A stretch of 64,000 nucleotides of DNA from an uncultured delta proteobacterium (GTDB taxonomy: Bacteria > Myxococcota_A > Polyangia > Fen-1088), in assembly GCA_963737265.1 (NCBI GenBank), contig CAVTRY010000011.1, positions 896,001-960,000 on the forward strand, written 5' to 3'. The notes below the pieces were generated by a model. That model was not told where the DNA came from, ran no database searches, and saw only the letters and a program-made list of their open reading frames with translations. This document shows positions 11,864 through 46,503 of the stretch, one piece after another. Made by a program: the position numbers and the translations under genes. The number at the start of each line of letters is the position of its first letter. Positions within the stretch are counted from its first letter, which is position 1.

Positions 11864-11864
11864 G

Positions 11865-21905: not shown

Positions 21906-22160
21906 CCGGGTCGATGGGCCCCAACTGCGCCACTTTCGCTTGTTCTGCCTGCTCGAACGTCACGGAGCCGCGGTGGGGCTCGCAGGTTCCGGCATCGTCA
22001 TCCTTGCCGGCAAGTCCAAGCCCTTTCGGACCGAGTTCTCCGACGAGGACTACAAGAAGGTTCGCGCAGTCGGGGACGAATACATCGCATTACACAAGCT
22101 GAAGCCGGGTGGCGCTGCGCCCGCGACGCGCGCGGGGAAAGACGAAACGAATACGCAGGA

Positions 22161-22183
22161 TTGTGACCCCATCGGGACTTGAA
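22161..22183 (-). repeat. att site (duplicated tRNA-Glu 3' end)
   Basis: Exact match to 42548-42570. Confidence 0.9.
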
Positions 22184-22438
22184 ACGCCTGTAAGCCATTC
22201 AGAAAAAACCCAGGCGCGACGCGGCCTTGCGCTACTTTTCTGAGTGGTTTTCAGGTGTTCGACTCGATGGGGTCGTTCCGTTTCGAGCCGCGTCTATCCG
22301 CAGAAAACCGCCCCAAAGTCGGATTTCATGGCAAAAGCGTGGCAAAAATTTCGGGCGTGGCAAACGACCCGATGGGGTCAGCATTCGCGGTGGACATGAC
22401 CTCGCCGCCCATCTCCGGACCGTGTCAGAATAGGCGCC

Positions 22439-22681: not shown

Positions 22682-22750
22682 AGGTTCGATCCCCCTGATA
22701 CCCGCAACGAAACGCAAGATGCGCAGTCGTGGTAGGCTTGTCGCAAGCTC

Positions 22751-23480: not shown

Positions 23481-23584
23481 CAGGAGGCAAACCACGCGGC
23501 CGAGGTCGTCAGAGGTAGCGACTCGTTCTAGTCTGTCTTCCGCGTGTCTGGCAGGCATCCGTCACTAGAGATGCCGCGCGCTGA

Positions 23585-28052: not shown

Positions 28053-30420
28053 AGGGGTCCTTTCTCGTGGTGGATGGCCGAGGCCAAAGCTTGGCGTCGG
28101 CACTCAGGGTGGTCGCGGTCCGTCCAAGGTCGTCGAGGACGGCGCGGAAGAGCGCTTCCAGGCGTCGCCGCTCCGGTGGCGCCAGATCGCTCGGCAGATG
28201 GAAATTCGCGAGCTCGTGTAGCGTCTTGCGAAAGTGGGCCAGCGTGTCCGTCAGGACCGACGCTCGCGTCGAAAGCGAGGCTGACGTCGTAGCCGGTGCC
28301 AGTTGCCCGAGCGGATCATCAATCAGGCAGCGGCGATCCGCGGGATCGGCGGCCCGGTAGGCGGCGACCAGTGCGAGCGCTCTTCGGGTGGGTACATGGT
28401 GGTGTGTGATGGCGGCAAGCACCGTGGCCTGGTCCTGTCGCCCGAGCGGAGCCAGCGCTTCGGCGAGCGATGGGCCAATACGCCCTTGCGCCAGCGCCGC
28501 GCTCGCCTCCGCGCCGAGTGAAGTGGACCCCTTTGGTAGGACCAGAAATGGCCCGAGCTAAGAGAGAGTCCGCGTGGGTTTGTTTGTAGATCCGGGTGAG
28601 CCTCGCCGGCAAGGAAATTGTTGAGAGCGGAGGCATGCTGATGGCTGCTGTCCACGGATGCAATGCGCGCACGGCCCCACAGAAGCAGGTGAACGCGTTG
28701 CAGTTGTGGGCAGCGTGCCATCAGCATGATGCAGCGGCGATTTAGGCGGCCTCTTTCATCGCCGACTTCTTTAGTTCGAATTCGTAAAACGCTACGGGTG
28801 TCTGAAATCCAAGGGTTTGGTGAGGCCGCCTGTGGTTGTACTTGTCCAGGTAGATCGCGATGCCACTGCGGGCGTCGGCCACGTCTCGGTAGTCGTTCAA
28901 GTAGACCTCCTCGCATTTGACAGACCGCCATAGACGCTCGAACGAAGATGTTGTCCATGAATCGGCCGCGACCGTCCATGCTGACCTTTACGCCCTTGTC
29001 CAGCAAAACCGATGTGAAGTTGTCGTCGGTAAACTGCGACCCCTGGTCGGTGTTGAAGATCTCCGGCAAGCCGAAGTTCGCAAGAGCTTCTTCCACGACC
29101 TCGATGCAAAAACGGCTGTCCATCGTGTTTGAAATGCGCCAGGACAGAACCCGGCGCGTGTACCAATCCATCACGGCGACCAGGTAGCAATGCCCCTGTC
29201 TCGTCGGGATGTACGTGATATCCGAGGCCCACACCTGATTGGGCCGAATGATCGCGAGATGGCGCAGCAAGTACGGGAATTTCGTATGTTCCGGCGCGGG
29301 CACGGTCGTCCGTGGTTTGGGCGCCAGCGCTTCGATGCCCATGATTCGCATCAGTCTCTGCACCCGTTTGCGATTCACCGTCTGCCCCTGTGCCTTTAGC
29401 AACCGTGACAGCTTCCGGCTGCCGAATGCTGGCAATTCGAGATGCAGCTTGTCCAGCTCCTTGCAGATGGCCAGATCTTCCTCTGCCATCGGCATCGGCT
29501 CCCAGTAGATGCCCGATCTCGCAAGATTCAGCAGCTCGCACTGCCGACGGACAGATAGGTCGTTGTGGGGCTCGATCATGGCGCGCTTCTCCGTCAGCGA
29601 ATGCGCGCGAGCCCGCGTGCTAAAAAATCATTCTCCAGCGTCAGCTGCCCCACCTTGCGCAGCAATTCCGATTCGCGTTCGGCGTTCGCCGATTCCTCTG
29701 CATTTGCATGGCCTGGTTCGAAAACCATGGCCAGCCGTGTGACGGCTTCCTTCTTCCACTTGTGAACCAGGTTCGGGTTGATCTTGTATCGGCGCCCGAT
29801 CTCCACAACCGTTGCCTGCTCCCGCATGGCTTCGAGAGCTACCTGCGCCTTGAAGAGTGCTGTGTGCTTTTGGCGGTTCGTTTTCATCGTGTCCTGCCTC
29901 GTTGTTGAGGCGGACTACACCTTAGCTCCTGGTCCCATTTTTGGGGTCCACTTCAGAGATGTCTGGCCAATAGCAGCCGCCGCTCTACCCAGTCAGTCTT
30001 GCGTCCGCAAAGAAGCGCCACTGCCCGCGCTGACAGCTCGTCCTCGTCGACCAAGGAGGCGACGACCCGTGCCTCGTCGAGCGCGGTCAAGGAGCGCGGT
30101 GGGGCATTGGCGGCCAGCATGGTGCGCTTGTGGTCGATGCGCGAGGCCGATATCTCCAGCATCACTGGCACGTGACTGTGGCCTTGCGCCCGCCAGCGAC
30201 TGAGACGCTTGAACCCGTCAAGCACCTCGTAATGGCCATCTTCCGTCTGCGCCACCCGTACCGGCAGCTCTGCCGTGAGCATTTCCGTGGGTGCAAGACA
30301 GCCGGGACGGAGGTGCGCATAGCTTGTCCGTAGATTGGACACGGGCAGAAAGCACACTGCCCCAGCCACCTCGTCCGGCACACGCGCTTGTGGCGCAGGC
30401 AGGTCGACCGGGGCGTTCAC
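28053..30420 (-). pseudogene. ParB-like (ParB/Srx N-domain + HTH) gene interrupted by an IS3 element
   Basis: YEVLDGFKR, LTALDEA, HTH. After removing the IS the frame reads LARHL|GAEARAALAQGRI. The 3' end is uncertain because the frame stays open into istA. Confidence 0.8.
28519..29955 (-). mobile_element. IS3-family element, copy 1 (orfA 29594-29887, orfB from 29579)
   Basis: TGAAGTGGACCCC IRs, 3-bp TSD GAG, WASDITY and NTDQGSQF motifs. Confidence 0.93.
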
Positions 30421-31170: not shown

Positions 31171-31728
31171 CGTACCGACACGAGGGGCCCGGGTGTTGTG
31201 ACCCGTGCCCCTCCTCCTTCGGGAGCCGCAGCCCCCTGCTTACGCCACCTCCACCGCTGCCGCGAATTTCCTGACCAGGCCGGCGCCGTGGTCCCGTCAG
31301 CCAGCCGTCCCCGTAGGCTTCACACCGCGGAAGTCACGCCACCATGCACGCTGCTCGCCCAGCCAACGCCCCATCTCCGATTTTCGGGCCACCGCCGCTA
31401 CGGAATTTCGGAGCCACCGTCACTGAAGACTTCAGCGGGCTTTGGCGAGACGTTGCCCGGGGCCTGGCCTGATTTGCCATTCTGACCGCGGCTCCGAGTT
31501 CGCAGCCACAAGCTTCCGCGATCTCCTCAAGCAAGCGCAGGCGCTGCAGAGCATGAGCCGCAAGGGCAATTGCTGGGACAACGCCGTGGCCGAGAGCTTC
31601 TTCTCTACACTCGAATTCGAGGGACCCAATACGTCAACCTGGCGCTACGTCTGCGATGGCGAGCCCGAGATGTTCACTTTCATCGAGAGCTACTACAACC
31701 AAACCAGGCTACATTCATACAACCGTTA

Positions 31729-33018
31729 GGTGCCGTCAAGAAATAAACTTTACATGAGCGTCTGCCGCAGTACCATTTGAGCCGATTGGACCCGACACAA
31801 AGTCTCAAAGGGAAGTTCCGTCTGGTGTGGCCACACTTGAGTGAGCGTGCTCGGCGTATGCTTGCGGCGGCGGAGGCCACCAATATTGGCTATGGCGGCG
31901 TGAGTCTCGTGAGTCGCGCATGCGGCCTGTCACGGGTGACCATTACGAAGGGCGTGAAGGAACTGCGACAGAAACCTCTGCATGGAGAGCGAGTTCGACG
32001 GAAGGGAGCCGGACGCCCGAAACTGGTGACATACGATCCCGAGCTGCCGCGGCTGCTTGAGTCGCTGGTGGAGCCGCTTACCCTCGGCGATCCGGAATCG
32101 CCGCTTCGGTGGACATGCAAGAGCACTCGGGCCCTCGCTCTGGAGTTGACTGCGCGCCGCCACCCAATAAGCCACGAGAAGGTTGCCCAACTTCTACGAG
32201 ACATGGACTATAGCTTGCAGGGGAACAGGAAGACCGAAGAGGGGGAGGATCATCCGGATCGCGATGCCCAGTTTCGGCACATCAATCGAGAGGTGCGACG
32301 TACGATGGCGGAGATGTGCCCTGTGATTTCGGTGGACACCAAGAAGAAAGAACTCGTCGGAAACTATCGAAACGCCGGACAGCAGTGGCGACTCAACGGG
32401 ACTGCCGACGTGGTGAACGGCCACGACTTCCCGGATCCGTCAGTGCCCCGCGCGTACCCATATGGCATCTACGACATGGCACGCAACACGGGATTCGTGA
32501 ATGTCGGAACCGACCACGACACGGCGGCGTTCGCGGTAGCGTCGATACGCGGATGGTGGCAGCACGAAGGAAGGCACTTGTATCCTCAGTCCACCCAGCT
32601 GCTGGTCACGGCTGACTCTGGCGGCAGCAACGGCTACAGGCTGCGCTTGTGGAAGGTCGAACTGCAGCGACTTTCCGATCAGACCGGTCTATCGATCAAG
32701 GTGTGCCACTTTCCGCCAGGAACGAGCAAATGGAACAAGGTCGAGCACCGGCTCTTTTCATTCATCTCGTCGAACTGGCGGGGTGAGCCGTTACGTGACT
32801 ACGAGACAATCGTGGGCCTGATTGCAGGAACGACCACAGCAAAGGGACTCGCAGTCCAGTGTCGTCTCGATCGGCGCAAGTACCCAGTCGGCCGACGGAT
32901 CACTGACGAGGAATTGGCGGAACTCAGTATCACCCGGTTGCCGTTCCACGGTGAATGGAACTACACAATCCATCCCAGGCGAGCACGTAAGCTGTAAATG
33001 TTAATTCTTGACGGCGCC
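31729..33018 (+). mobile_element. ISAzo13-family IS (transposase 31777-32997)
   Basis: IRs GGTGCCGTCAAGAA / GGCGCCGTCAAGAA, TSD TTA; SVDTKKKE, ADSGGSNG, PPGTSKWNKVEHRLF. Confidence 0.93.
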
Positions 33019-33236: not shown

Positions 33237-33425
33237 GTGACGCGCAAAACGCCTGACCTGCCCGACACCGCCCGCCTGGAGCAAATCCAGTACCACATCT
33301 ACGTCCGCGGAAAGATCGAGCGCGGCCAGCGTGACGTAGAAGCCGGACGCGTGGTCAACCAAGACGAGGCCAAGCGACGGATGGCCAAGTGGCTCGGCGG
33401 CAGCGTCAACGCGCAGGCGTGGTAG
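33237..33425 (+). pseudogene. Antitoxin-like fragment
   Basis: LPDTARLEQIQYHIYVRGKIERGQRDVEAGRVV..EAKRRMAKW. Confidence 0.6.
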
Positions 33426-33440
33426 GTTTGTCGCAAGCTC

Positions 33441-33692
33441 ATGGTCACGGTCCAAGTGCAGATCCCCGAGGAGACCTTCTCGGCGCTTCGCCGATCTCCC
33501 GACGAGATAGCCGGCGAGCTACGTCTTGCTGCCGCCGTCCACTGGTACTCGCGCGGCCTCATCTCGCAAGAGCGCGCTGCACAGCTGGCTGGGCTTGACC
33601 GAACGGATTTCATCCTGGTTCTCGCCCGCGAGGGTATGGACGTCTTCGCGGTGGACATGAACTCGCTCAGGCGAGAACTGGCTGATGGCTGA
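33441..33692 (+). CDS. UPF0175 family antitoxin (near-identical to 22751-23002); partner PIN gene truncated
   Basis: Near-identical protein; DNA similarity spans about 33411-33710 vs 22721-23020. Confidence 0.85.
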   Translation: MVTVQVQIPEETFSALRRSPDEIAGELRLAAAVHWYSRGLISQERAAQLAGLDRTDFILVLAREGMDVFAVDMNSLRRELADG

Positions 33693-33951
33693 CCAGGCCC
33701 TCGTCAACGCCTCCCTGTATACGATCGCCCGGAAAGACGGCGCGACGATCGTGACGAGCGCGGGCCCGAGATGCTCCAACCGCTTGGAATCCAAAGCGCA
33801 TGTCGAAACCAGCGATCTAGCTCAGCGCGATCGTGTCCGAGCCCTCTGACGTGATCGTTTCCATATTGGACCGTCGATAGGCGCACCACGCGCGTGAAAC
33901 GCGTGGCAAAGAAGCCATCCTCCCGGAATCAGACTGGGTTATCCTCCTGCT

Positions 33952-34473: not shown

Positions 34474-34593
34474 ACCGACAGCACCCTACGAAGCCTACCC
34501 ACTGTCTGAATACGTCAGCCTTGACGTGGGGAACCGACGGGGTGATGATCGGGCGGTCTACCGTCTCGCGTGCGACTCGCAAATGGAGGGACC

Positions 34594-36336
34594 ATGAAAC
34601 TTAGTCTGGCTGCTGTGCTTCTGGGATCGATGGCGATGGCTTCCTGTACCGGCAGTTCGGGCGGAGGCGGAAGAGCGACGCCCGATGCCGGTACGCCATC
34701 CGCAGACGCGGTTACCTCGGCTGATGCCACCGTTCCAGACATCGCGATTCCCGACGCAGTGATGCCCGACTCGGTGATTCCAGATATCGCGCTTCCCGAT
34801 GCTGCTGGATCTGACGCAGCAGTTCCCGACATCGCAATGCCCGATGCTGTGATGCCCGACGTGGTAGTTCCCGACGTCTCGGTTCCCGATGCTGCCGGGC
34901 CTGACGTCATTCGAGATCTAGCGAATCCCGATTTGTCTGTTCCTGGCGATGCATCCATGCCGACGCCGGATGCAGGAAGCGGAGCCATGCCCCGATTTGT
35001 CGACCCTCCAGACGCGGGCGGATCCAAACAACTGCTCACGTGCATCGCGCATCTCTATGGAAAGACCATTGCGGGCGTGCCACTGCATCCCATCGCAGCG
35101 GTGAGCGTGACCAACCCTGGTTCGGCTCCGGCTGACGTGATCGTTACCGCCCAACTCCAAAACTACTCGGACAAGTCGTCGGTAGGGCTTCACGTCCCTG
35201 CGAGCGGAACCGCTTCGACTCCGCCCATCGATCTCAGTCTTCACCTTTCCGACCTCTACACCATAAGCGCTCCGGTAACCGCAAACGTCACGCTAGAACT
35301 CGCCCTCGCGGGAAACGCGGCCCTTCTCGACGCGCACTCGAAAAGCATTGCGATACTTCCCAAGAACACGATCTACTGGTCGATGCCCGACTCCACCGGG
35401 AACCAGGTAGACACCAGATTCTTCATAGGGGCCTTTGTCACGCCTCACGACCAGGCGCTTTCCGTCGACCAGTTGCTCAAAGACGCTGCGTCGTACAGCA
35501 GGTTCAACCAGATGATCGGCTACCAGTACACCTCCATACTCAATCAAAGCAGTGTGTCCTCCTTGTCAGCCGTTGCGCCAGGCCAGTGCTCTACAAAGAG
35601 CCTGGCCTTGCATGCCGGCCCGCTGTCCATCAGCGCTGCCGCCTCGTGTTCCTCGCTGTGTGCATCTTCCAACGCCTACGTCCAGATCTACACGCAGGCC
35701 GCACTGGCCGGCTCCGGGGCACCACTTGGCGAGATAGACGGATTGGGTTCGTGGAGCGGCACATTGAACGTGCCAGCCGACGACACCTATGTCTTCGCCG
35801 GGTGTAACCCGTCGGCCAACTCAACCAACCGCGATTTCACTATCACCTTGGCCCCGACTGCCGCCACAGGGGCATTTGATCAGATGGGAGCGATTTTCTT
35901 AGCTCTCAAGGCGCGTGGCTTGCAGTACGTGACTGTTGCGCAGGACTTTTTCGCAAGTGCCCAGAACGTGAAGTACCCAGTGGAATCACTGGCTACGACG
36001 AGTGCAAACTGCATCGACGGAACGCTCGTGTTCGCCAGCGCCCTTGAATCGATGGGAATGCGACCCGGCATCATCATGTTTTCAGATCATGCGACCATCG
36101 CCGTGCTCGCCGATCCCAGCGCCGATCCTTGTACCATCGCCAACTGGTTTCCCATGGAAACGACGATGGTTTCGAGCAACACGCCGATGGAGGCCGTCAC
36201 CTACGACGTCAAGAACCATATGTCCGATGTGGTCCAAGTCTTCGCGTCAGAATGTTCGGGTGTCACGCCAAATGTCCCGACCATCTTCGACGTGAAGTCT
36301 CTACGGGACCTCGGCATCACGCCAGCCTCGATGTAG
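34594..36336 (+). CDS. Lipoprotein with Pro-Asp repeat stalk and C-terminal transglutaminase/cysteine-protease-like domain
   Basis: GGAGG RBS, lipobox MASC, PD(x3) repeats, ANCIDG..FASALE..DHA..ETT. Confidence 0.75.
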   Translation: MKLSLAAVLLGSMAMASCTGSSGGGGRATPDAGTPSADAVTSADATVPDIAIPDAVMPDSVIPDIALPDAAGSDAAVPDIAMPDAVMPDVVVPDVSVPDAAGPDVIRDLANPDLSVPGDASMPTPDAGSGAMPRFVDPPDAGGSKQLLTCIAHLYGKTIAGVPLHPIAAVSVTNPGSAPADVIVTAQLQNYSDKSSVGLHVPASGTASTPPIDLSLHLSDLYTISAPVTANVTLELALAGNAALLDAHSKSIAILPKNTIYWSMPDSTGNQVDTRFFIGAFVTPHDQALSVDQLLKDAASYSRFNQMIGYQYTSILNQSSVSSLSAVAPGQCSTKSLALHAGPLSISAAASCSSLCASSNAYVQIYTQAALAGSGAPLGEIDGLGSWSGTLNVPADDTYVFAGCNPSANSTNRDFTITLAPTAATGAFDQMGAIFLALKARGLQYVTVAQDFFASAQNVKYPVESLATTSANCIDGTLVFASALESMGMRPGIIMFSDHATIAVLADPSADPCTIANWFPMETTMVSSNTPMEAVTYDVKNHMSDVVQVFASECSGVTPNVPTIFDVKSLRDLGITPASM

Positions 36337-36346
36337 CAGTGGCGCC

Positions 36347-36847
36347 CTATGCCCGTCCCCGCCACAACGAAGCGAGGTCGCCGAAAAACCAGCGATCGAA
36401 CCGCTTGAGCGTTCCCATTTTTCGCGCCTTTGCCGGCGTCTGAAGCGCTTGCGCATGCCTTTCAGATGCTTGCGCTAGCGCTAGCACTCCGGCGGTTTCG
36501 GCGCTTGCAGCCTGCTCGATCGCGCGCTCGCAAGCGCTTTCCGGCGCATCCATCTCAGCGCTTGCGCATGCCGTTGCCGGTTCGTCTAGCAGCGCCGCAT
36601 CCAGCGCGGTCGCGCCTATGCCCACGGCCGGCACCGCGAATCCATCGCCCATACAAGCGCTGTCGCCGGGCACTACCGTCTGAACATCTGTGAGCGCCTC
36701 CAGGCGCGCTCGCGCCGCCGTCATTGCGGCGCCCTTGTCCGCGATCCCTGTCCTCCAGACGCGCCTGCGCCCGTCTGAAAGCCACATCTCCGCATCCCAG
36801 ACCTCGCGCCCGGCCTTGCGATACAGGTACAGACGCGGTTCAGACAC
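36347..36847 (-). CDS. Hypothetical protein with N-terminal integrase-arm-like DNA-binding domain
   Basis: LYRKAGREVW..W..DGRRRVWRTG..DKGAA; GTG start after AAGGA. Confidence 0.5.
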   Translation of the reverse strand: MSEPRLYLYRKAGREVWDAEMWLSDGRRRVWRTGIADKGAAMTAARARLEALTDVQTVVPGDSACMGDGFAVPAVGIGATALDAALLDEPATACASAEMDAPESACERAIEQAASAETAGVLALAQASERHAQALQTPAKARKMGTLKRFDRWFFGDLASLWRGRA

Positions 36848-36932
36848 TGGATTCCTTCCGGGCCTTGCCGATCTCATTGCCGAGAAGGATTCCGATCATC
36901 AACACAACAAGGAGCAGGGACAACGCGCGCAT
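36840..36932 (-). CDS. 30-aa single-TM peptide MRALSLLLVVLMIGILLGNEIGKARKESSV
   Basis: GGAG RBS; stop overlaps the next gene start; below the ORF track cutoff. Confidence 0.5.
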   Translation of the reverse strand: MRALSLLLVVLMIGILLGNEIGKARKESSV

Positions 36933-36977
36933 GACTCCAGTTTTCCAGACCGATTTTCAGACGTCCAGCATGAAGAA

Positions 36978-38415
36978 TGAAGTGGACCCCAAAAATGGGA
37001 CCAGGAGCTAAGGTGTAGTCCGCCTCAACAACGAGGCAGGACACGATGAAAACGAACCGCCAAAAGCACACAGCACTCTTCAAGGCGCAGGTAGCTCTCG
37101 AAGCCATGCGGGAGCAGGCAACGGTTGTGGAGATCGGGCGCCGATATAAGATCAACCCGAACCTGGTTCACAAGTGGAAGAAGGAAGCCGTCACACGGCT
37201 GGCCATGGTTTTCGAACCAGGCCATGCAAATGCAGAGGAATCGGCGAACGCCGAACGCGAATCGGAATTGCTGCGCAAGGTGGGGCAGCTGACGCTGGAG
37301 AATGATTTTTTAGCACGCGGGCTCGCGCGCATTCGCTGACGGAGAAGCGCGCCATGATCGAGCCCCACAACGACCTATCTGTCCGTCGGCAGTGCGAGCT
37401 GCTGAATCTTGCGAGATCGGGCATCTACTGGGAGCCGATGCCGATGGCAGAGGAAGATCTGGCCATCTGCAAGGAGCTGGACAAGCTGCATCTCGAATTG
37501 CCAGCATTCGGCAGCCGGAAGCTGTCACGGTTGCTAAAGGCACAGGGGCAGACGGTGAATCGCAAACGGGTGCAGAGACTGATGCGAATCATGGGCATCG
37601 AAGCGCTGGCGCCCAAACCACGGACGACCGTGCCCGCGCCGGAACATACGAAATTCCCGGTACTTGCTGCGCCATCTCGCGATCATTCGGCCCAATCAGG
37701 TGTGGGCCTCGGATATCACGTACATCCCGACGAGACAGGGGCATTGCTACCTGGTCGCCGTGATGGATTGGTACACGCGCCGGGTTCTGTCCTGGCGCAT
37801 TTCAAACACGATGGACAGCCGTTTTTGCATCGAGGTCGTGGAAGAAGCTCTTGCGAACTTCGGCTTGCCGGAGATCTTCAACACCGACCAGGGGTCGCAG
37901 TTTACCGACGACAACTTCACATCGGTTTTGCTGGACAAGGGCGTAAAGGTCAGCATGGACGGTCGCGGCCGATTCATGGACAACATCTTCGTTCGAGCGT
38001 CTATGGCGGTCTGTCAAATGCGAGGAGGTCTACTTGAACGACTACCGAGACGTGGCCGACGCCCGCAGTGGCATCGCGATCTACCTGGACAAGTACAACC
38101 ACAGGCGGCCTCACCAAACCCTTGGATTTCAGACACCCGTAGCGTTTTACGAATTCGAACTAAAGAAGTCGGCGATGAAAGAGGCCGCCTAAATCGCCGC
38201 TGCATCATGCTGATGGCACGCTGCCCACAACTGCAACGCGTTCACCTGCTTCTGTGGGGCCGTGCGCGCATTGCATCCGTGGACAGCAGCCATCAGCATG
38301 CCTCCGCTCTCAACAATTTCCTTGCCGGCGAGGCTCACCCGGATCTACAAACAAACCCACGCGGACTCTCTCTTAGCTCGGGCCATTTCTGGTCCTACCA
38401 AAGGGGTCCACTTCA
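36978..38415 (+). mobile_element. IS3-family element, copy 2
   Basis: Near-identical to 28519-29955 (inverted); TSD GAA; one extra base near 37659. Confidence 0.93.
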
Positions 38416-38424
38416 GAACGCTTC

Positions 38425-39249
38425 GTGCCGTTCCCTTCCTCCAGGTTCCACGAGGAACGAATCAAACATATACTCGCAGGCATGTACGAGGGCTTTTTGC
38501 TAAATCCAGACGGGCCGCAAGGTGACAAGATCCGATCGGAAATCGGAAACTCTAGCTACGCCTTCCTCCCCAACCCTGAGGAGTTCTTCTTCTGTCCCTG
38601 GCACAACCTAGAAAAGGCGGAGCTCACGGCCGAGACGCTTCCACCAACGGCAAACGTCGTTTGTAGTTTTACCGCTGGCGAGGACTGTTACATCCCTTGT
38701 CCGGAGCGCAGTGGCAGGCTCCCCATCGAGAACCTGCCCTGTGAGGGATACTTCTCACCTTCGCCAGAGGGCATTGGGGTCGATGTGCTCATGAACCAGG
38801 GCTTTCACCTGGAAGCACTCCCCGATGGGCGACAGGTCTTCTTCATCCCCAATCACACCGCGATAAAGCAGCTTGGACCTTTCACCCCTACGGTCTGGAA
38901 GCGACTCGTTGACAACATCAATGATTCACGGGCGAAGGTAATTCGGCATGCGTACCAGGTCACGCTAGGCGTGCTCCAGATCTGGCGAAGGATCGGCCCG
39001 TCGATGGCGCGCGTGCGCGAGTGCAACAAAGATACGGAGGAAGGCCGTGAAGCATTCTTCGCCGTCCTTCAGCAAATTGATCCCAGCGGCAGAAACAGAA
39101 AACTGGAGGAATGGATTTCTTACTGGGCCGAAGATCTCCACAATGAGCCCGCGAAGGAATTCAAGCCGCACCTGGAAGCCCGCAAAGTGCTTGCCCGCGC
39201 AACCGGTCTCGGGGCAGCGAATATCGGAACAATCGTCGGGCGCGGCTAG
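38425..39249 (+). CDS. Hypothetical protein (5' region abuts the IS insertion)
   Basis: 274-aa ORF directly upstream of the replication module. Confidence 0.6.
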   Translation: MPFPSSRFHEERIKHILAGMYEGFLLNPDGPQGDKIRSEIGNSSYAFLPNPEEFFFCPWHNLEKAELTAETLPPTANVVCSFTAGEDCYIPCPERSGRLPIENLPCEGYFSPSPEGIGVDVLMNQGFHLEALPDGRQVFFIPNHTAIKQLGPFTPTVWKRLVDNINDSRAKVIRHAYQVTLGVLQIWRRIGPSMARVRECNKDTEEGREAFFAVLQQIDPSGRNRKLEEWISYWAEDLHNEPAKEFKPHLEARKVLARATGLGAANIGTIVGRG

Positions 39250-39432
39250 CGGCCACTCGCGCTCAAAATCTGTTTGTCACCGTTCCGTTGGTTCTGCATT
39301 TCCAGCGGCGCAAACCTCTGGAATTCCAGCCATCTGGATAGCGTTTGTCAGATCGGCGCCCAAATCCTAATTTGTCAATTCAGGGGTCAAATCCAAAGAG
39401 CGCCGCCGACGGCAATCCTGTATTCGTGAATC

Positions 39433-40722
39433 ATGTCAATGGTTCACGAAGAAACGCCTCGCAACGAGGATCCAAAAGGCGATGTGGTCGCGCCCATCGC
39501 CGCGCTGACGGGTAAACCGATAGCGGGGGCGGAGCGCTCGGCAACGAGCGCATCGTCTTTTGGGTCCTTGGGCGAGCCCGCGACCATCGGGAACCCCGAA
39601 GCGCCCAGCGCGGGGGTGAGCGCAAGCGAGGGGCGCGTAGCCCCTTCCGCAGGTGCCGGCGACGCCGGCGCCCCTAACCTTGATACGTATGGATCATCTG
39701 CCTCCGGCGTGCCGTCCCGTGCCGCCATCTTCCGGCCACTCTTCCTCAGCCTTGCGGAATACCGAAGGCGTCTTGCCGACGAACTGAAATCGCTGGCCAG
39801 ATTCTATTTTCCAAAGGGCAAGAATCGCCGCGGCTTCCAGCGCAAGGCCCTGGCCGTTCAGCTTTGCGGGAAGGTGGCACGGGTGCAGAAGTGCAGCGCT
39901 TGTGGCGCCATGGATCCCGCGACGGCTCTGATCGAATCATCCTGCGATCTCCGAACTTGCCCGACGTGCGCGCGCAGACGCGCGAACGTTCTGCGCGAGC
40001 GACTGGATACCAGTTATGCCGGGGGACCGCACCCACACGACATGAGCCTCTACCTGCTCACGTTCACACTCCGATACGATCCAAGCGATCCCAACGACCT
40101 ATCCGTCGAGGGGCTGAGGCGTCGGAAGAAGATCGTGCGCGACGCGGTGGGCTTCGTCTGGAAGAAGTATCTCAAGCCCAGAGGACGGGCGCTAGCGCTG
40201 GGTCTGGAGACATCCCCGCGCGGCGCGGTCCACATCCACGCGCTCTATCACGGGCGACGCCCAGACGTCGGCAAGCTGCGCGATACATACATGTTCGCCG
40301 CAGGCGACTCGCCCTTCGTGAACTGCAAATACGTGCATAAGCCGGCCAAGGCGATTCGCGAGCTGGCGAAATACGTGGTGAAGGCCGCTTCGACTAGGAA
40401 CCCGCGCCTCCTTCGCGGTGGGCGCGGCGAATTCATCGACCCGGTGCTGGCCGCGCGCACCGAAGTCGCGTTTTCGGGCGCTCGCCTCTACGAAACATTC
40501 GGAGCCTGGCGCGGGGCGAACGACGAGAAGGACCTTCCCGAGCAGGCGACGCGAGATTGCCCCTGCTGCGGCGCGAGCGAATGGACGCAGGAGACGCTCA
40601 CCCTTCGGTCGCTGATTTCGATGCTTCCAGACGATTGGACCCCGCGGTTTGGGCGCGCGGGGCCTCAGTCGAAAAAGCAAAACCAAATCGCCCAAGCCAA
40701 AGGAGAGGCCCATGCCGAATGA
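39433..40722 (+). CDS. rep: HUH rolling-circle replication initiator (Rep_1-like); real start probably after 39690
   Basis: C..CPTC, motif 1 LLTFTL, motif 2 VHIHALY, motif 3 AKYVVK. Confidence 0.85.
   Translation: MSMVHEETPRNEDPKGDVVAPIAALTGKPIAGAERSATSASSFGSLGEPATIGNPEAPSAGVSASEGRVAPSAGAGDAGAPNLDTYGSSASGVPSRAAIFRPLFLSLAEYRRRLADELKSLARFYFPKGKNRRGFQRKALAVQLCGKVARVQKCSACGAMDPATALIESSCDLRTCPTCARRRANVLRERLDTSYAGGPHPHDMSLYLLTFTLRYDPSDPNDLSVEGLRRRKKIVRDAVGFVWKKYLKPRGRALALGLETSPRGAVHIHALYHGRRPDVGKLRDTYMFAAGDSPFVNCKYVHKPAKAIRELAKYVVKAASTRNPRLLRGGRGEFIDPVLAARTEVAFSGARLYETFGAWRGANDEKDLPEQATRDCPCCGASEWTQETLTLRSLISMLPDDWTPRFGRAGPQSKKQNQIAQAKGEAHAE
39652..39690 (+). other. Putative double-strand origin (nick site CTTGATA at 39679-39685 with adjacent hairpin)
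   Basis: GGTGCCGGC-GAC-GCCGGCGCC hairpin then AACCTTGATA; CTTGATA is the conserved pC194/phiX174-type nick sequence. Confidence 0.7.
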
Positions 40723-41209
40723 ATCGAAGACCGCAGTTGAACCGCAAACACGAATCGCAAACGAAGAGGAGAAACACACCATGAGCACCCCGCAAAAACC
40801 AGACTGGATCCAAAACGCAGCCCGCGTTGATCGGCCCGAAATCGAACGATGGTACAAGCCCGAGAAGGAAGGCGCCCTGGACGGCGTGCTCATCTGGCGC
40901 GGCCAGGAAGAGCACCGCCAGTCCGGCGACGTCTACAACGTCTACGCCATCAGGCAGAACGAGACGAACGCCATCATTGGCGTCTCGGAGCGCTTTGGCC
41001 TGCGCGGTTTGCGCAGGGTCAAGCTGAACAGCAAGGTGTTCATCGAGCCCACCGGCGAGAAGGAGCTGGAGAGCGGGCGGAAGATGCAGCAGTTCCAGAT
41101 TCACGCGGAGCACCTCGAAGCGCTGCCCGAGCCAACACGCGCCAAACCGAAAGGGACTCAAAGCCCGACAGACGGAGCGACGGCCGGTTCCGAAGAAGTT
41201 CCCTTTTAG
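40712..41209 (+). CDS. Putative single-stranded DNA-binding protein
   Basis: Beta-rich, follows rep, acidic tail ending EEVPF. Confidence 0.6.
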   Translation: MPNESKTAVEPQTRIANEEEKHTMSTPQKPDWIQNAARVDRPEIERWYKPEKEGALDGVLIWRGQEEHRQSGDVYNVYAIRQNETNAIIGVSERFGLRGLRRVKLNSKVFIEPTGEKELESGRKMQQFQIHAEHLEALPEPTRAKPKGTQSPTDGATAGSEEVPF

Positions 41210-41227
41210 CCATCTGGAGGTCGCCCC

Positions 41228-41452
41228 ATGTCCCTACAACTGCCAGACCGCCCCGTGCTCACCGTGAAGGAGGCTGCCGCGATCCTCGGCGTGAACGTGA
41301 AAACGCTTTACGCCGAGATCGAAGCCGGCGCCTTCCCGGCGCTCCGGGTCGGGAGAGTGATCCGAATCGCGACCAACGTGCTAGCCTCGTTCCTTCAGCA
41401 AGGCCGCGTCGCGCCGGTTGGAGGAATCCATGCCAGCAAGACGCGATCGTAG
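41228..41452 (+). CDS. Excisionase-like HTH protein
   Basis: LTVKEAAAILGVNVKTLY..I..G.FPALRVGRVIRI. Confidence 0.88.
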   Translation: MSLQLPDRPVLTVKEAAAILGVNVKTLYAEIEAGAFPALRVGRVIRIATNVLASFLQQGRVAPVGGIHASKTRS

Positions 41453-42542
41453 TGGACGATGGCGATACAGAAAAACAGTCAGACTCCCCGACGGGAGCAA
41501 ACGCCGCATCGACGGAACGCCAACGTCGAACACGAAACTGGCGGCCGAGGCTGCGGAGCGAGACCACATCAACCGTGTGGTCTCGCCCCCGGCCGCTATC
41601 GAAGAGAAGAAGGAGGTGCCCACCTTTCAGAAGTTCGTGGACGTGGTTTGGTGGCCAACGTATCCAAGCTCGGTCAACAACCGGCCGAGCACCTGCCAAG
41701 AGAAAGAGATCCATCTTCGGATTCACCTCAAGCCCACGCTTGGCGCCCTGCCCTTGGACAAGATCCGCGGCGAGGTGGTCAACGTCCTGATGGCGAAGCT
41801 GAAGGTGGAATCGAAGCTCTGCCCAAAGTCGATCAAGAACATCATCGGGACGCTGAGGCGCGTGCTGGCCTCGGCAGTCGAGTGGGAGTATCTGGGGGCG
41901 ATGCCTCCCCTACCCCGCATCAAGGTGGCGCAGCCGGAGTGGGATTTCCTCACGCCGGAGGAATCCGCCAAGGTGCTGGAGGCAGCGCGGGCGCGCTCCG
42001 AGGAGGTCTACGCCTCGATTCTGTTCGCGCTGCACACAGGGGCGCGAGCGGGCGAGGAGATCGCTTTGGAATGGGGCGACGTGGACTACCACAGCCACAT
42101 GCTGGTCTTCCGCCGCAGCTCTACCAAGGGCTACGTCGGACCGACCAAGAGCGGGAAAGAACGGCGGGTGCCCCTCACGGCTTCACTGGAAGCCGCACTG
42201 AAGGCGATCCGTCACCTGCGGGGCAAGCGGGTCTTCTGCAAGGAAGACGGCTCTGCGCTGCTGATAGGGCAGCTTCACGAGCGACTGTGGGGCGCGTGTC
42301 GACGGGCGGGCCTTCGGGAGATCCGGTGGCACGACTTGCGACACACGTTCGCTTCGCAGCTAGCCTCCCAGGGCGTTCCCATTCCGCAGATCCAGCAGTG
42401 GATGGGACACTCCACCATCACCATGACCATGCGCTATGCCCACCTGGCTCCGGGCAGCGGAGCCGACCTGATCCGATCACTCGACGCCAATTCCGTGGCA
42501 AATCCGTGGCAAAAACACGCGTCCCCGGCCCTAAGTACCTAG
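41430..42542 (+). CDS. int: Tyrosine recombinase/phage-type integrase
   Basis: TGARAGE, TKSG, HDLRH, MGH, MRYAH; ends next to the att site. Confidence 0.95.
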   Translation: MPARRDRSGRWRYRKTVRLPDGSKRRIDGTPTSNTKLAAEAAERDHINRVVSPPAAIEEKKEVPTFQKFVDVVWWPTYPSSVNNRPSTCQEKEIHLRIHLKPTLGALPLDKIRGEVVNVLMAKLKVESKLCPKSIKNIIGTLRRVLASAVEWEYLGAMPPLPRIKVAQPEWDFLTPEESAKVLEAARARSEEVYASILFALHTGARAGEEIALEWGDVDYHSHMLVFRRSSTKGYVGPTKSGKERRVPLTASLEAALKAIRHLRGKRVFCKEDGSALLIGQLHERLWGACRRAGLREIRWHDLRHTFASQLASQGVPIPQIQQWMGHSTITMTMRYAHLAPGSGADLIRSLDANSVANPWQKHASPALST

Positions 42543-42550
42543 AATCCTTG

Positions 42551-42622
42551 TGACCCCATCGGGACTTGAACCCGAGATTACGCCGTGAGAGGGCGCCGTC
42601 CTAACCACTAGACCATGGGGCC
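42551..42622 (-). tRNA. tRNA-Glu(CTC)
   Basis: GGCCCCATGGTCTAGTGGTTAGGACGGCGCCCTCTCACGGCG..GTTCAAGTCCCGATGGGGTCA cloverleaf. Confidence 0.95.
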
Positions 42623-42651
42623 GTTGCGCGGGCGCAACTATTGGAAGCTAG

Positions 42652-42722
42652 TTCGGGGATAAGGATTCGAACCTTAATAGCCAGATCCAGAGTCTGGCGT
42701 CCTGCCATTAGACGATCCCCGA
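42652..42722 (-). tRNA. tRNA-Gln(CTG)
   Basis: TCGGGGATCGTCTAATGGCAGGACGCCAGACTCTGGATCTGG..GTTCGAATCCTTATCCCCGAA. Confidence 0.95.
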
Positions 42723-42891
42723 ATACGTTCGCGGCGGGCTTTCCCGCCGCGGATGACATTTGTAGCAATCGGCTCATCGGTGTCAAGAACTGCGTGCAAT
42801 CCGTCGCGAAATGGCTAACTTGCCCGGGGGCGAAATGGGTGTAGTTTACAAGTCTTGCAAGCGGCCAGAGGCCGCGCGGTGAGTAAGTAAT

Positions 42892-46014: not shown

Positions 46015-46503
46015 CTACCCTTCGCCCGCCAAAGCTAAGATGTGATCGCGAAGGTCCCAGGAAACGCGAAGCCGGAGCTCTAGGAGGCGATCCAGAATCG
46101 GGCGCACCGCTGGCACGTGGCCGAGCTGTTTGGCGACAAGAACCACGTTCAGGGTGCCGGTGATCTTCACGCCGAGTCGCGCGGCCACCCGGCGTCCGGG
46201 CAATTCGTCGATGATGGCCACCGCGCCAGGATTCGCCATCGCAAGGGTCAAGACCGCGCGTTCGCCTGCCCCGAGAAAGCCGAACGGTTCCAACTCGGGG
46301 GACAGAAGCGCGACTGGCCGCACGTCCGCCCAAGGCAGGTTAAGCGGCTCGGGAAGATCGTAACCGCGCGCACGTCCGGCGCTCAATTCGGCCACCACCT
46401 GGCCGGGAACGATGACGCGGCCGAGGACGGCGGGCAAGACTTGCAGAATGCCCGCGCGGTGCAGGTAGCACAGAGGCGACGTGTTGACGATGTGGTCAGC
46501 CAA
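46015..46503 (-). CDS. DUF3368 PIN-domain protein
   Basis: VNTSPL, LGAGE, IIDE, ITGTL. Confidence 0.88.
   Translation of the reverse strand: MADHIVNTSPLCYLHRAGILQVLPAVLGRVIVPGQVVAELSAGRARGYDLPEPLNLPWADVRPVALLSPELEPFGFLGAGERAVLTLAMANPGAVAIIDELPGRRVAARLGVKITGTLNVVLVAKQLGHVPAVRPILDRLLELRLRVSWDLRDHILALAGEG

Follow-up and report, generated by a model that had tools for sequence, protein, structure and literature searches.

In the part of the literature considered here, the nick consensus of the pC194 family of rolling-circle initiators is given as 5'-CTTGAT-3', and pSAM2, which carries a rep-xis-int operon, is assigned to this family (PMC2440964). Furthermore, passages on streptococcal integrative mobilizable elements (IMEs) with tyrosine integrases describe relaxases related to rolling-circle initiators (PMC5357655), and the Rep_1 proteins of pC194, pUB110, and pTA1060 are described in excerpts from two sources as supporting ICEBs1 mobilization (PMC5357655, PMC5714925). 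In this study, we closely examined a locus within a 64-kb stretch of DNA (here named the window). The element is probably an integrative rolling-circle replicon, with a backbone of a divergent open reading frame (ORF), a variable ORF, rep, an SSB-like gene, xis, int, and attP.

RESULTS

An exact 23-bp direct repeat, TTGTGACCCCATCGGGACTTGAA, was found twice in the window (Table 1) with a spacing of 20387 bp, where 0 such pairs are expected by chance; beyond these two, no further copies were present with up to 3 mismatches allowed. The 3' end of a tRNA-Glu(CTC) gene lies within the right copy. The original prediction of att repeats 20.4 kb apart and of integration at a tRNA-Glu gene was thereby confirmed. 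(A/G)TGGCAAA repeats, among them GTGGCAAA, lie at both ends and may be arm-type sites. The related locus L001 harbors GTGGCAAA pairs beside both of its ends as well, at 6836 and 6847 (left equivalent) and at 13000 and 13011 (right).

Insertion-sequence debris and cargo make up about 17 kb of the 20.4-kb element, a point that the original prediction had overlooked. One IS3-family copy is 99.86% identical to an inverted copy at 28519-29955 and is flanked by its own 3-bp target duplication, GAA. Lying between the divergent ORF and the ORF next to rep, it breaks up the element without belonging to it; it occupies the presumed control region, which counts against our main explanation. As had been claimed, Pfam and PHROGs revealed no virion, relaxase, or T4SS genes in the ORFs scanned between the repeats; FtsK-like genes were not detected in them either, and no conjugative system was visible in the 64-kb window. 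The element may be regarded as a small genomic island whose host is Polyangia/Myxococcales-like, and the IS-ridden copy could be active at present.

Four co-directional, tightly packed genes, rep, ORFX, xis, and int, were found at the right end of the element, all of them as predicted and identified at the family or fold level. ORFX is coupled to rep, its ATG following AAGGAG and overlapping the rep stop codon. Xis scored 37.9 bits against TIGR01764 "excise" (cut-off, 28.8). The integrase reading frame is the ORF at 41418-42542, with GGAGG 5 nt ahead of the ATG at 41430; a longer-looking ATG ORF at 41459-42553 has no Pfam match and was ruled out as the integrase.

Upstream of rep, neither the 176-aa divergent ORF nor the 274-aa ORF has a family match. 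Homologues of the former occur upstream of rep at the same place and on the same strand in L002 (170 aa aligned, 46% identity) and L004 (52 aa aligned, 56% identity), while the position of the latter holds a different ORF in L001 (246 aa) and L002 (241 aa), these two being mutually 52% identical. The TTTGTCA copies at 39273, 39344, and 39371 make up three of the five in the window within 105 bp, and the last two head a 27-nt tandem repeat at 39344-39397. All three repeats of the original prediction (about 39283-39378) are thus present, although the first lies 10 nt further left. Arrays with a 26- to 30-bp period and differing sequence are located at the same position in L001, L002, L004, and L005. 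The TTTGTCA motif itself is not conserved, a point missed in the original prediction; what the loci share at this place is a repeat array, which may provide operator or iteron sites.

Table 1. Positions of the genes, repeats, and candidate sites of the element in the window
Feature	Position	Strand	Details
attL: left copy of 23-bp direct repeat, duplicating tRNA-Glu 3' end	22161..22183	.	Exact repeat
Left-end (A/G)TGGCAAA repeat cluster, candidate integrase arm-type sites	22329..22364	+	GTGGCAAA at 22339 and 22357; ATGGCAAA at 22329
Divergent ORF, 176 aa, possible regulator	36347..36877	-	Conserved in L002 and L004
IS3-family insertion (copy 2)	36978..38415	.	1438 bp; HTH_Tnp_1, HTH_21, and rve matches
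ORF, 274 aa, directly upstream of rep	38425..39249	+	Varies between elements
Repeat array, candidate operator or iteron sites	39272..39397	+	GTTTGTCA x3, last two head 27-nt tandem
rep: HUH rolling-circle initiator, eight conserved Cys	39433..40722	+	HUH H267/H269; Y314 within ELAKYVVK
Conserved structured DNA, candidate double-strand origin, possibly with single-strand origin	39484..39700	+	Inside 5' end of rep ORF
CTTGATA, candidate nick site (presumably cut as CTTG/ATA)	39679..39685	+	CTTGAT invariant in 6/6 aligned loci
ORFX: OB-fold protein, SSB-like	40712..41209	+	Structure model and tail; Gly/Pro-rich linker, acidic C-terminal tip ...SEEVPF
xis: excisionase-type helix-turn-helix protein	41228..41452	+	HTH_17 E 2.8e-12; PHROG excisionase families
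int: tyrosine integrase	41430..42542	+	Phage_integrase E 9.7e-29; R...HxxR...Y motifs
Right-end GTGGCAAA x2 inside int 3' end, candidate arm-type sites	42495..42513	+	Same pair in L001
attR: right copy of 23-bp repeat, overlapping tRNA 3' end	42548..42570	.	Exact repeat
tRNA-Glu(CTC), target of integration	42550..42622	-	ARAGORN; Rfam tRNA 62.9 bits

The HUH and Tyr motifs of Rep are invariant or nearly so across homologues, and only one Tyr is invariant. The extra Cys pairs noted originally proved to be a hallmark of the family: across 45 sequences (22-46% identity), C145, C154, C157, C171, C176, C179, C376, and C379 do not vary. Against Rep_1, the window's Rep reached an E value of 3.9e-4 and 20.4 bits, which is below the Pfam cut-off of 33.2; among the 28 family members, Rep_1 is matched by 21 (best E 1.7e-13) and REP_ORF2-G2P by 23 (best E 3.3e-7). 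The structure model has a pLDDT of >90 for most of residues 100-420, while residues 1-93, which overlap the conserved DNA element, are predicted to be disordered (pLDDT of that peptide, 33-41). HUH Rep domains came out best in a fold search of the PDB, headed by a circovirus Rep nuclease domain (TM 0.60 on the target, E 4.9e-3), and SIRV1 ORF119, geminivirus Reps, MVM NS1, Helitron, and RepB were among the 49 matches listed, with E values of >1e-3 in every case for both Rep and ORFX. No sequence match of Rep or ORFX to a solved Rep or SSB was obtained, nor was there a sequence match to plasmid or phage records, including 50,697 phage records. Judging from its motifs, Rep may act as a nicking HUH initiator with a single Tyr (Y314).

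ORFX remained without a sequence-family match in Pfam, PHROGs, NCBIfam, and PDB sequence searches, so that its designation as an SSB has no support at this level. What upholds the designation is an OB-like model in which residues 41-130 have a pLDDT of about 90, PDB fold matches that include RPA, ribosomal OB, and SSB structures, and a PF ending after a Gly-rich linker and acidic tip in 19 of 22 homologues. Among viral models, 16 matched at E <= 1e-3, and the 50 listed include 9 named SSB. An acidic ...VPF tip is typical of cellular-type SSBs and not of gene V proteins. ORFX may coat single-stranded DNA.

The strongest of the new evidence comes from a stretch of ~220 bp at the 5' end of rep. 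This stretch is constrained at the DNA level, its third codon positions being as conserved as the first and second: identity at positions 1/2/3 is 0.75/0.80/0.74 here versus 0.76/0.80/0.47 over the remainder of rep. Within it lie a long imperfect hairpin (~39491-39618) and two further ones (~39630-39648 and 39652-39672). The hairpins covary. In the six related sequences on which the origin evidence is based, 90% of the cells of 64 predicted pairs are paired, a percentage inflated by prediction of the structure from the same sequences, versus 44-53% with partners slid by 1-3 columns. Compensatory changes affect 8 pairs versus 1-5 when slid, and none of 500 shuffles reached the covariation score. 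For the window copy itself, the gain in folding over shuffled sequences is only modest (z -1.98), with 7 of 200 shuffles doing equally well. At all six loci, the plus strand gives a better fold than does the minus strand.

The predicted nick motif beside a GC hairpin was located 6 nt past the last hairpin, which has a 9-bp stem and a 3-nt loop. The window has three copies of CTTGATA where 1.8 would be expected, and at least as many turn up in 23 of 100 shuffles; since this count is at chance level, the weight of the motif comes from its conservation in relatives. The original prediction had regarded loss of the motif in homologues as evidence against it; CTTGAT is invariant in all six loci, including a 44%-identical Rep remnant, with one locus reading CTTGATC instead of CTTGATA, and the truncated rep remnant of L005 retains it. 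The conserved stretch keeps the reading frame of rep, with gap lengths in the alignment divisible by 3 and an in-frame LD[T/P/K/N] at the nick motif in 22 of 28 predicted proteins. It is therefore probably also translated, and the constraint could partly be on RNA or protein. Overall, the comparison is consistent with a double-strand origin, to which a single-strand origin may be joined.

Of five related genome loci, four keep the Rep-ORFX-Xis-Int module. The module is conserved at three kinds of site, tRNA-Glu(CTC), tRNA-Glu(TTC), and tmRNA, with one locus cut by a contig end. L001 occupies the same tRNA-Glu/tRNA-Gln site, bounded by two copies of the same 22-nt repeat with a spacing of 6383 bp, and this 6.4-kb copy contains no virion, morphogenesis, or conjugation genes. 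Between the window and L001, identity is 65% for Rep, 78% for Int, and 84% for Xis, compared with 73% for the flanking chromosomal PP2C gene. The element genes are thus about as diverged as the PP2C gene, and long vertical residence fits as well as mobility.

DISCUSSION

As an integrative rolling-circle replicon, the element would work as follows. Transcription of rep-orfX-xis-int would start in the region holding the short repeat array, and Xis and Int would recombine the 23-bp cores to release a circle with 42547 joined to 22184. Rep, through Y314, would bind the hairpin region that lies within the 5' end of rep and nick the plus strand at CTTG/AT, the plus-strand sequence CCCTAACCTTGATAC being the expected substrate of the cut. 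Host helicase and polymerase would extend the 3'-OH, and the displaced plus strand would be coated by the OB-fold protein, whose acidic ...VPF tip may recruit host replisome partners. Displacement would end with the long conserved hairpin that immediately precedes the nick on its 5' side; this hairpin might bind Rep, serve as a lagging-strand origin, or do both. Finally, the circle would re-enter the tRNA 3' end via Int. Since the backbone has no transfer or packaging genes, spread between cells, if any, would need a helper.

The main rival, which overlaps with this explanation and which we consider unlikely, is an integrative mobilizable element in which Rep is mainly a conjugative relaxase, the oriT is formed by the hairpin-CTTGAT region, the Rep-bound single strand leaves through a co-resident conjugative system, and replication after excision is a side function. 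The small size, tyrosine integrase, and direct repeats would suit such an element, as would the absence of transfer genes from the window and the five loci, and Rep-like relaxases of streptococcal IMEs and ICEBs1-mobilized Rep_1 plasmids offer precedents in the excerpts cited (PMC5357655, PMC5714925). However, the portion of PMC5357655 drawn on here usually pairs an IME Rep-like relaxase with a TcpA/FtsK-like coupling protein, of which none was seen here, and its mobilization examples all come from firmicutes. Nor does the window hold a visible conjugative system, and an element-encoded SSB and a long hairpin upstream of the nick suit vegetative rolling-circle replication at least equally. Clearly less probable is a derivation from a filamentous (inovirus-like) phage, as its satellite or remnant, with Rep and the OB-fold protein as gene II and gene V counterparts and single strands packaged in the coat of a helper phage. 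RS1 and TLC are Vibrio satellites, and Pf prophages carry int and xis at tRNA genes. The divergent upstream ORF, the small OB-fold gene directly after Rep, and the family's matches to REP_ORF2-G2P, an inovirus/plectrovirus Rep domain, would agree with such an origin, but Zot/pI ATPase, coat, and secretin families did not turn up in the window element or the five loci, L001 leaves no room for morphogenesis genes, the ORFX tip is unlike gene V proteins, the phage records gave no match, and no packaging signal or helper is known. Decay from a complete inovirus, a possibility raised originally, also finds no counterpart among the five related loci, none of which is an inovirus.

It is similarly improbable that the 220-bp stretch is an RNA element (a leader or antisense target controlling rep translation) or encodes an N-terminal peptide, with CTTGAT being coincidental. 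Rolling-circle plasmids often control rep via countertranscripts, the stretch is on the sense strand, in frame, at the 5' end of the ORF, and its helices contain G-U type pairs; an mRNA, too, would fold better on the plus strand. Yet the stretch has no Rfam family match at E <= 1, equal conservation at all three codon positions and the predicted disorder argue against a peptide, and the invariant hexamer, kept even in the L005 remnant, equals the nick consensus of the Rep family resembled and follows within a few bases on the 3' side of a covarying hairpin. An IS91-like or Helitron-like rolling-circle transposon with Rep as its transposase is hardly credible. Zn_Tnp_IS91 matches 15 of 28 members weakly (best E 1.3e-6) and the Helitron transposase ranks 44 among the weak fold matches, but the catalytic Y2_Tnp domain was found in none of 28 family members or 36 wider relatives scanned, the invariant Tyr is single rather than double, and the gene always sits in a fixed xis-int operon beside a tRNA or tmRNA with att repeats. 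Rep and IS91 transposases have only the N-terminal zinc-ribbon domain in common, which contradicts an IS91-type identity, and the grouping with IS91 transposases that the original prediction had named as a counterargument was not found.

With the IS91 grouping, the loss of the nick motif, and inoviruses among the five related loci all failing to appear, our results support an integrative ssDNA replicon. The FtsK-like transfer gene that defines pSAM2-type elements is absent from this element, but the rep-xis-int operon of pSAM2, an actinomycete integrative element of Streptomyces, is the closest known layout; the originally proposed likeness to filamentous prophages and integrative plasmids therefore holds best for integrative elements and less closely for filamentous phage.

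A four-gene Rep module in an island bounded by direct repeats at a tRNA-Glu gene

Sequence search of the window revealed an exact 23-bp direct repeat at 22161-22183 and 42548-42570 (spacing, 20387 bp), the right copy of which covers the 3' end of a tRNA-Glu(CTC) gene. No third copy with up to three mismatches was found in the window, including the part left of 22161, and none is expected by chance. Directly inside the right repeat lie four genes in the same direction, namely rep, ORFX, xis and int, whose positions are collected with the other features of the island in the table below. The integrase frame is the ORF at 41418-42542; an ORF starting with ATG at 41459-42553 is without a Pfam match.

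Features of the island and of its compact relative L001 (window positions unless a locus is named; in the strand column, a dash means that no strand is given)
Feature	Position	Strand	Remarks
tRNA-Glu(CTC)	42550-42622	minus	ARAGORN; tRNA-Gln comes next
rep	39433-40722	+	429 aa
ORFX	40712-41209	+	ATG preceded by AAGGAG, overlaps rep stop
xis	41228-41452	+	HTH_17, E 2.8e-12; TIGR01764 'excise' above cut-off
int	41430-42542	+	Phage_integrase, E 9.7e-29
CTTGATA (candidate nick motif)	39679-39685	+	6 nt past a 9-bp GC stem (39652-39672)
GTGGCAAA clusters	window 22329-22364, 42495-42513; L001 6836-6854, 13000-13018	-	adjoin both att repeats
IS256/Mutator-type fragment	23565-24038	-	inside island
IS21 istA/istB	26352-28103 and 25577-26617	-	inside island
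ISAzo13-type DDE transposase	31777-32997	-	inside island; side listing spans 31442-32997 including an rve fragment
IS3-family element, two inverted copies	28519-29955 and 36978-38415	-	1438 bp, 99.86% identical
UPF0175/DUF3368 pair, toxin-antitoxin-like, two copies inside island	22721-23023 and 33411-33713	-	92% identity over 303 bp
588-aa ORF	34570-36336	-	45-nt (15-aa) tandem repeats; no Pfam match

A homologue search with Rep residues 95-429 as the query, in which 8000 candidates were scored, yielded 56 proteins at E <= 1e-3. All were derived from metagenomes or metagenome-assembled genomes (MAGs), and the single named source was a Polyangia bacterium. Twenty-seven of these homologues were aligned with the window Rep, and a scan of species-representative genomes with the resulting 28-sequence alignment matched 43 stretches, five of which were confirmed as related loci (L001 to L005). 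All five are located in MAGs titled delta proteobacterium, Myxococcales, Pseudomonadota or proteobacterium. The gene order Rep-ORFX-Xis-Int is kept in 4/5 loci, L001 to L004, as judged by tblastn, while L005 harbors rep alone, cut off after the Tyr motif and fused to foreign ORFs.

Identity of the module proteins to those of the window at the four loci that keep the gene order
Locus	Site	Rep	Xis	Int	ORFX
L001	tRNA-Glu(CTC)/tRNA-Gln	65%	84%	78%	43% (partial)
L002	contig ends inside int	66%	80%	77%	47% (partial)
L003	tRNA-Glu(TTC)	60%	73%	59%	60% over 131 aa
L004	tmRNA	62%	59%	45%	64% over 92 aa

L001 occupies the chromosomal site of the window element, with a downstream PP2C/cNMP gene that is 73% identical, and is bounded by the same repeat (22 nt), the copies of which are only 6383 bp apart. 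This compact copy is made up of a gene for a Kelch-repeat protein, a 246-aa ORF and the rep-ORFX-xis-int module; no other gene of appreciable length is present. At L003 and L004, no att repeats were found in the flanking sequence examined. The L004 copy beside the tmRNA gene carries two tandem HTH_17 (Xis-like) genes between ORFX and int (11651-11893 and 11921-12262). The truncated rep of L005 (9203-11392) is fused in frame to unrelated upstream sequence and retains the conserved hairpin-CTTGATAC region; no integrase was found within 10 kb of this remnant.

Pairs of GTGGCAAA are present ~170 bp inward of the left repeat and ~45 bp inward of the right one, and the arrangement is the same in the window and in L001. 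The sites of these end pairs account for 4/5 copies of the motif in the window and likewise for 4/5 in L001, and the repeats are plausible candidates for arm-type sites of the integrase. The GTGGCAAA pairs at matching ends show that the left end of the window element is a genuine element end despite the bloated interior.

Rep is a divergent Rep_1-like protein with eight invariant cysteines

Pfam matches of the window Rep are weak (Rep_1, E 3.9e-4; Zn_Tnp_IS91, E 2.2e-3; REP_ORF2-G2P, E 0.033), and the protein stays under the curated cut-off of Rep_1 (PF01446) with 20.4 versus 33.2 bits. Across the 28 aligned family members, Rep_1 was matched at E <= 0.01 in 21 (best E, 1.7e-13), REP_ORF2-G2P in 23 and Zn_Tnp_IS91 in 15, and a weak RepSA match (E 0.0023) was obtained for a single member. 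Among the residues invariant in this alignment are H267 and H269 (VHIHALY), E310, K313, Y314 and K317 (ELAKYVVK) and six Cys.

When 1.84 billion cluster representatives were searched with a Rep profile, 3465 matched at E <= 1e-3; 891 of them passed E <= 1e-10, and 168 passed E <= 1e-30. Pfam scans of 36 wider relatives, drawn from 150 listed matches among the 3465, found Rep_1 at E <= 1e-3 in 22/36 (three above the cut-off), no domain match at all in 9/36 and HTH_17 at the C terminus in 1/36. The C-terminal HTH_17 match of this last relative, P0109, has an E value of 7.6e-4, and the protein may be Rep fused to Xis or the product of a gene call with read-through. We also aligned the window Rep with 44 of the 150 listed relatives, at 22-46% identity (n = 45). 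Cys 145, 154, 157, 171, 176, 179, 376 and 379, Y314, G264 and G357 are invariant, and H267, H269, K313 and K317 are conserved in at least 90% of the sequences. Since eight Cys are invariant in all 45 sequences, the Cys pairs noted in the original prediction are a hallmark of the family; by number, they would be enough for two Cys4 metal sites.

The AlphaFold model of Rep has a mean pLDDT of 77.5, with residues 5-93 below 50 and most of residues 100-420 above 90. In a Foldseek search against the PDB, the nuclease domain of a circovirus Rep ranked first (E 4.9e-3; TM score on the target, 0.60), and the 49 listed fold matches also include SIRV1 ORF119, geminivirus and circovirus Reps, MVM NS1, a Helitron transposase and pMV158 RepB; none reached E <= 1e-3. 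The Rep profile gave chance-level matches only against PDB sequences, and tblastn found no match to Rep in 72,556 plasmid records or in the phage collection. From these patterns, we read Rep as a diverged, Rep_1-like HUH initiator whose N-terminal domain is a zinc ribbon. The alternative of an IS91-type transposase draws on the zinc-ribbon domain match only, which is weak, and is ruled out by the single invariant Tyr and by Y2_Tnp, which was matched in 0/28 family members and 0/36 wider relatives.

ORFX encodes a predicted OB-fold protein with an acidic tip

No Pfam, PHROG or NCBIfam match was obtained for ORFX, no SSB was among its PDB-sequence matches, which were at chance level, and tblastn against phages found no match. 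Among 79 candidates, 36 were ORFX homologues, none of them named, and 22 were aligned. They have a conserved core of ~110 aa, followed by a Gly/Pro-rich stretch and an acidic end; 19/22 terminate in PF, and the window protein ends in ...AGSEEVPF. We take this tip to resemble the acidic ...IPF tip of bacterial (E. coli) SSBs.

The structural model of ORFX shows five strands, with a pLDDT of ~90 for residues 41-130. Its PDB matches are OB folds, comprising RPA1 (E 1.4e-3), ribosomal OB proteins and an archaeal OB domain, and mitochondrial and bacterial SSB structures were matched at E 0.012-0.021; no PDB fold match was found at E <= 1e-3. Against viral models, 16 matches were obtained at E <= 1e-3, and 9 of the 50 listed matches are named single-stranded DNA-binding protein. 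Protein Atlas look-alikes were discarded: all were viral clusters without a name, recognised at a level under the stated reliability limit. The original prediction had called ORFX an SSB. The OB-fold model and the acidic PF tip speak for this, the lack of an SSB sequence-family match against it, and judging from the model ORFX appears to be SSB-like and not a member of the SSB family (PF00436).

A candidate double-strand origin is overprinted on the 5' end of rep

Alignment of window positions 39200-39800 with L001 to L005 (six sequences) showed that the loci are unrelated before ~39470, strongly conserved from ~39484 to 39700 and follow a coding pattern beyond 39700. In the rep frame, mean pairwise identity at codon positions 1/2/3 was 0.72/0.74/0.73 for 39484-39700 and 0.57/0.58/0.46 for 39700-39800 in the six sequences. 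Over the whole gene in five sequences, the values were 0.75/0.80/0.74 in 39484-39700 versus 0.76/0.80/0.47 in 39709-40722. By this measure, selection on 39484-39700 appears to target the nucleic acid and not the encoded peptide. The stretch is probably translated, as a disordered N-terminal tail, because it is in frame with rep, its alignment gaps are multiples of three and an in-frame LD[T/P/K/N] is found at the nick motif in 22/28 predicted proteins (FNT in two; region absent in four).

The CTTGATA heptamer alone is at chance level, with three occurrences in the window versus 1.8 expected. When its conservation in relatives was checked, CTTGAT proved invariant in 6/6 loci, L005 with its 44%-identical Rep remnant among them; in L002, the seventh base is C (CTTGATC). 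Cleavage at motifs of this kind takes place between G and A, single-strand origins are typically found immediately ahead of the nick, and pT181 and phiX174 are known to have their origins within the initiator gene. Passages of PMC2440964 give 5'-CTTGAT-3' as the nick consensus of the pC194 family, place pSAM2 in that family and describe rolling-circle origins as consisting of a binding region and a hairpin-bearing nick site.

For the conserved stretch, RNAalifold predicted 64 pairs forming a long imperfect hairpin (~39491-39618) with a GC-rich inner hairpin, a second hairpin and a nick-adjacent hairpin. Within the predicted pairs, 90.1% of cells were paired versus 43.6-53.0% with partners slid by 1-3 columns, and compensatory change was seen in eight pairs versus 1-5 after sliding. 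The paired percentage or covariation score was matched by 0/500 column shuffles; both values come from six related sequences, from which the structure itself had been predicted. For the window copy, the gain in folding over shuffled sequences is only modest (z -1.98; 7/200 fold as well). The plus strand is more stable than the minus strand in 6/6 loci, by 0.8-6.6 kcal/mol, which would fit a structure used single-stranded. Rfam searches of 38800-42800 at E <= 1 found two tRNAs and chance matches only.

The region upstream of rep varies between elements

Three of the five window copies of TTTGTCA are located at 39273, 39344 and 39371, of which the second and third head the units of a 27-nt tandem. 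In the window, L001, L002, L004 and L005, the DNA 100-150 bp ahead of the conserved stretch contains short repeats arrayed at a period of 26-30 bp. Their sequences differ: the window has TTTGTCA...CAAATCC, L004 a GGGATC-type array and L005 a 16-mer, and the arrays of L001 and L002 consist of GTACAATG palindromes. L001 and L002 also have a homologous rep-proximal ORF (52% identity) along with their common array motif, whereas the window combines a different motif with an unrelated 274-aa rep-proximal ORF. Since array motif and rep-proximal ORF vary together, we infer that the arrays might be element-specific operator or iteron sites. A sigma-70 promoter scan of 36200-42700 returned 0 sites.

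Further upstream, on the minus strand, lies a conserved divergent ORF (36347-36877). Its homologues in L002 and L004 occupy the equivalent position, and Pfam, PHROGs and NCBIfam assigned the ORF to no family. In the window, an IS3 copy is inserted between this ORF and the rep-proximal ORF. An integrase-like arm-binding domain was considered for the divergent ORF and rejected, as BLASTP against Int gave E 3.8-4.0 and Pfam at E <= 5 chance matches only.

The island interior and its chromosomal neighbourhood

The interior of the island is mostly insertion debris and cargo. Each of the two IS3 copies has its own 3-bp target duplication (GAG and GAA); therefore, both are simple insertions, and an inversion between them is ruled out. 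These copies point to recent transposition within the island. The island also encodes an Lcl_C-domain protein. A third DUF3368 gene is located outside the island at 46015-46503, right of the tRNAs. The 588-aa ORF matches the NCBIfam anti-phage ProA model locally (83 aa, E 4e-18), with a score far under the cut-off. For a 155-aa ORF beside IS3 copy 1 (29953-30420, minus strand), PHROG searches gave weak hits to partition proteins of the ParB kind (E 6e-5 to 9e-3). Among the scanned island ORFs, Pfam and PHROGs detected no virion, relaxase, T4SS, FtsK-like or Zot families, and the scanned ORFs of the window element and L001 to L005 gave no Pfam or PHROG match to FtsK/SpoIIIE-like Tra or spread genes.

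Left of the left repeat, window positions 506-21376 encode an SNF2 helicase with NOV_C, SIR2-like, GmrSD and metallophosphatase proteins, DUF3560, ORF6N, a PD-(D/E)XK nuclease and a PIN protein. This DNA looks like a defence island, and the tRNA-Glu site may be an accretion hotspot with its outer edge beyond the window. Type I restriction-modification genes are located left of the Rep module in L001 (828-3962), L002 (2212-6356) and L004 (2463-8301), and the window has only out-of-order HsdR fragments at 19843-20215 and 21373-22182, one of which ends at the left att repeat. The restriction-modification genes could be element cargo or belong to an older neighbouring island.

Implications

Based on its genes and predicted origin, the element is best described as an integrative replicon with a rolling-circle initiator. 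The original prediction, an integrative single-stranded DNA (ssDNA) replicon or phage satellite of a possibly undescribed family, had picked out a real arrangement and interpreted it largely correctly. A more far-reaching scenario, which we regard as improbable, would make these elements integrative, ssDNA-producing satellites of Myxococcota and a class that has so far gone unrecognised. Once excised, they would form SSB-coated ssDNA circles from the origin in rep, spread via a helper (a filamentous phage, a conjugative system or another DNA exporter) and carry defence cargo, e.g., type I restriction-modification, between tRNA and tmRNA hotspots.

Taken as an integrative replicon, the element would add a Zn-ribbon Rep_1-like clade, an SSB-like gene without a family and an origin overprinted on rep, the last being a clean example of a replication origin within the reading frame of its own initiator. 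Very few mobile elements have been described in myxobacteria and their relatives, and we found no paper describing this family among the open-access full texts searched. According to parts of a preprint (10.64898/2026.09.14.751636), a screen of 3,229 myxobacterial genomes with standard tools identified only 10 ICEs/IMEs. The family would escape such screens because Rep lies under the Pfam thresholds, the SSB-like protein has no family and there is no relaxase or T4SS. With 168 representatives at E <= 1e-30 and 3465 at E <= 1e-3, it is thus no rarity among environmental sequences. With this element, the rep-xis-int layout of actinomycetes extends to a Gram-negative phylum, and integrase, att site, origin and Rep offer a compact natural vector backbone for the genetically difficult Polyangia.

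Comparison with known systems

Filamentous-phage replication modules and their satellites (gene II-gene V; RS1, TLC and Pf prophages) live integrated and place a small protein of the ssDNA-binding type after Rep, with a divergent gene upstream. The element shares this plan, with an SSB-like protein behind Rep. A complete or decayed inovirus is improbable, as no Zot/pI assembly ATPase, coat or other morphogenesis family was found in the window or in the five related loci. In further contrast to filamentous phage, the SSB-like protein has a cellular-type acidic tip, and the element uses its own tyrosine integrase at tRNA or tmRNA genes.

The likeness to plasmids of the pC194/pUB110 (Rep_1) type lies in the HUH motif, the single Tyr with a Glu four residues before it (ELAKY), CTTGAT(A) close to a hairpin and a stretch rich in hairpins ahead of the nick motif; a Glu-Tyr pairing is known from pC194 RepA. 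These are free plasmids, whereas the element described here is integrative, and its Rep differs by eight invariant Cys, a disordered N-terminal extension and a score under the Rep_1 cut-off. Passages of PMC5714925 define Rep_1 by pC194 and pUB110 and, together with parts of PMC5357655, state that Rep_1 proteins of firmicute plasmids serve both replication and mobilisation; by analogy, Rep could act as a relaxase.

An integrase, direct repeats at the ends and no T4SS, the hallmarks of integrative mobilizable elements (IMEs), were all found for the window element. As portrayed in parts of PMC5357655, streptococcal IMEs are likewise small, with direct repeats, a tyrosine integrase, a relative of rolling-circle initiators and no T4SS. 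They belong to firmicutes and use PF02486, PF01719, PHA00330 or PF02407, usually with a TcpA coupling protein (passages of PMC5357655), whereas the present element has a Zn-ribbon Rep_1-like Rep, no coupling protein and an SSB-like gene.

[quoted passage not shown] Passages of PMC2440964 describe for the pSAM2 type further traits seen here: insertion at a 3' tRNA end with short direct repeats; a rolling-circle Rep with pC194-type CTTGAT, encoded directly upstream of xis and int in one operon; and a divergent upstream gene plus a rep-proximal gene (cf. korSA and pra). The overlapping or closely spaced rep-orfX-xis-int genes match this operon order with one extra gene between rep and xis. That gene, SSB-like, and the origin inside the 5' end of rep set the element apart from the AICE layout; the AICEs pMEA100 and pSE222 encode an SSB, and AICE transfer depends on conjugation genes (parts of PMC2440964). 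Unlike in AICEs, no FtsK/SpoIIIE-type Tra, Spd genes, GntR-type Kor or Nudix Pif were detected here, Rep is not of the RepSA/RepAM type (RepSA in 1/28, weak) and the host is Myxococcota-like instead of an actinomycete. Transfer protein and Rep family thus keep the element out of the AICEs, and by sequence its layout appears closest to pSAM2-type AICEs and its gene content closest to IMEs.
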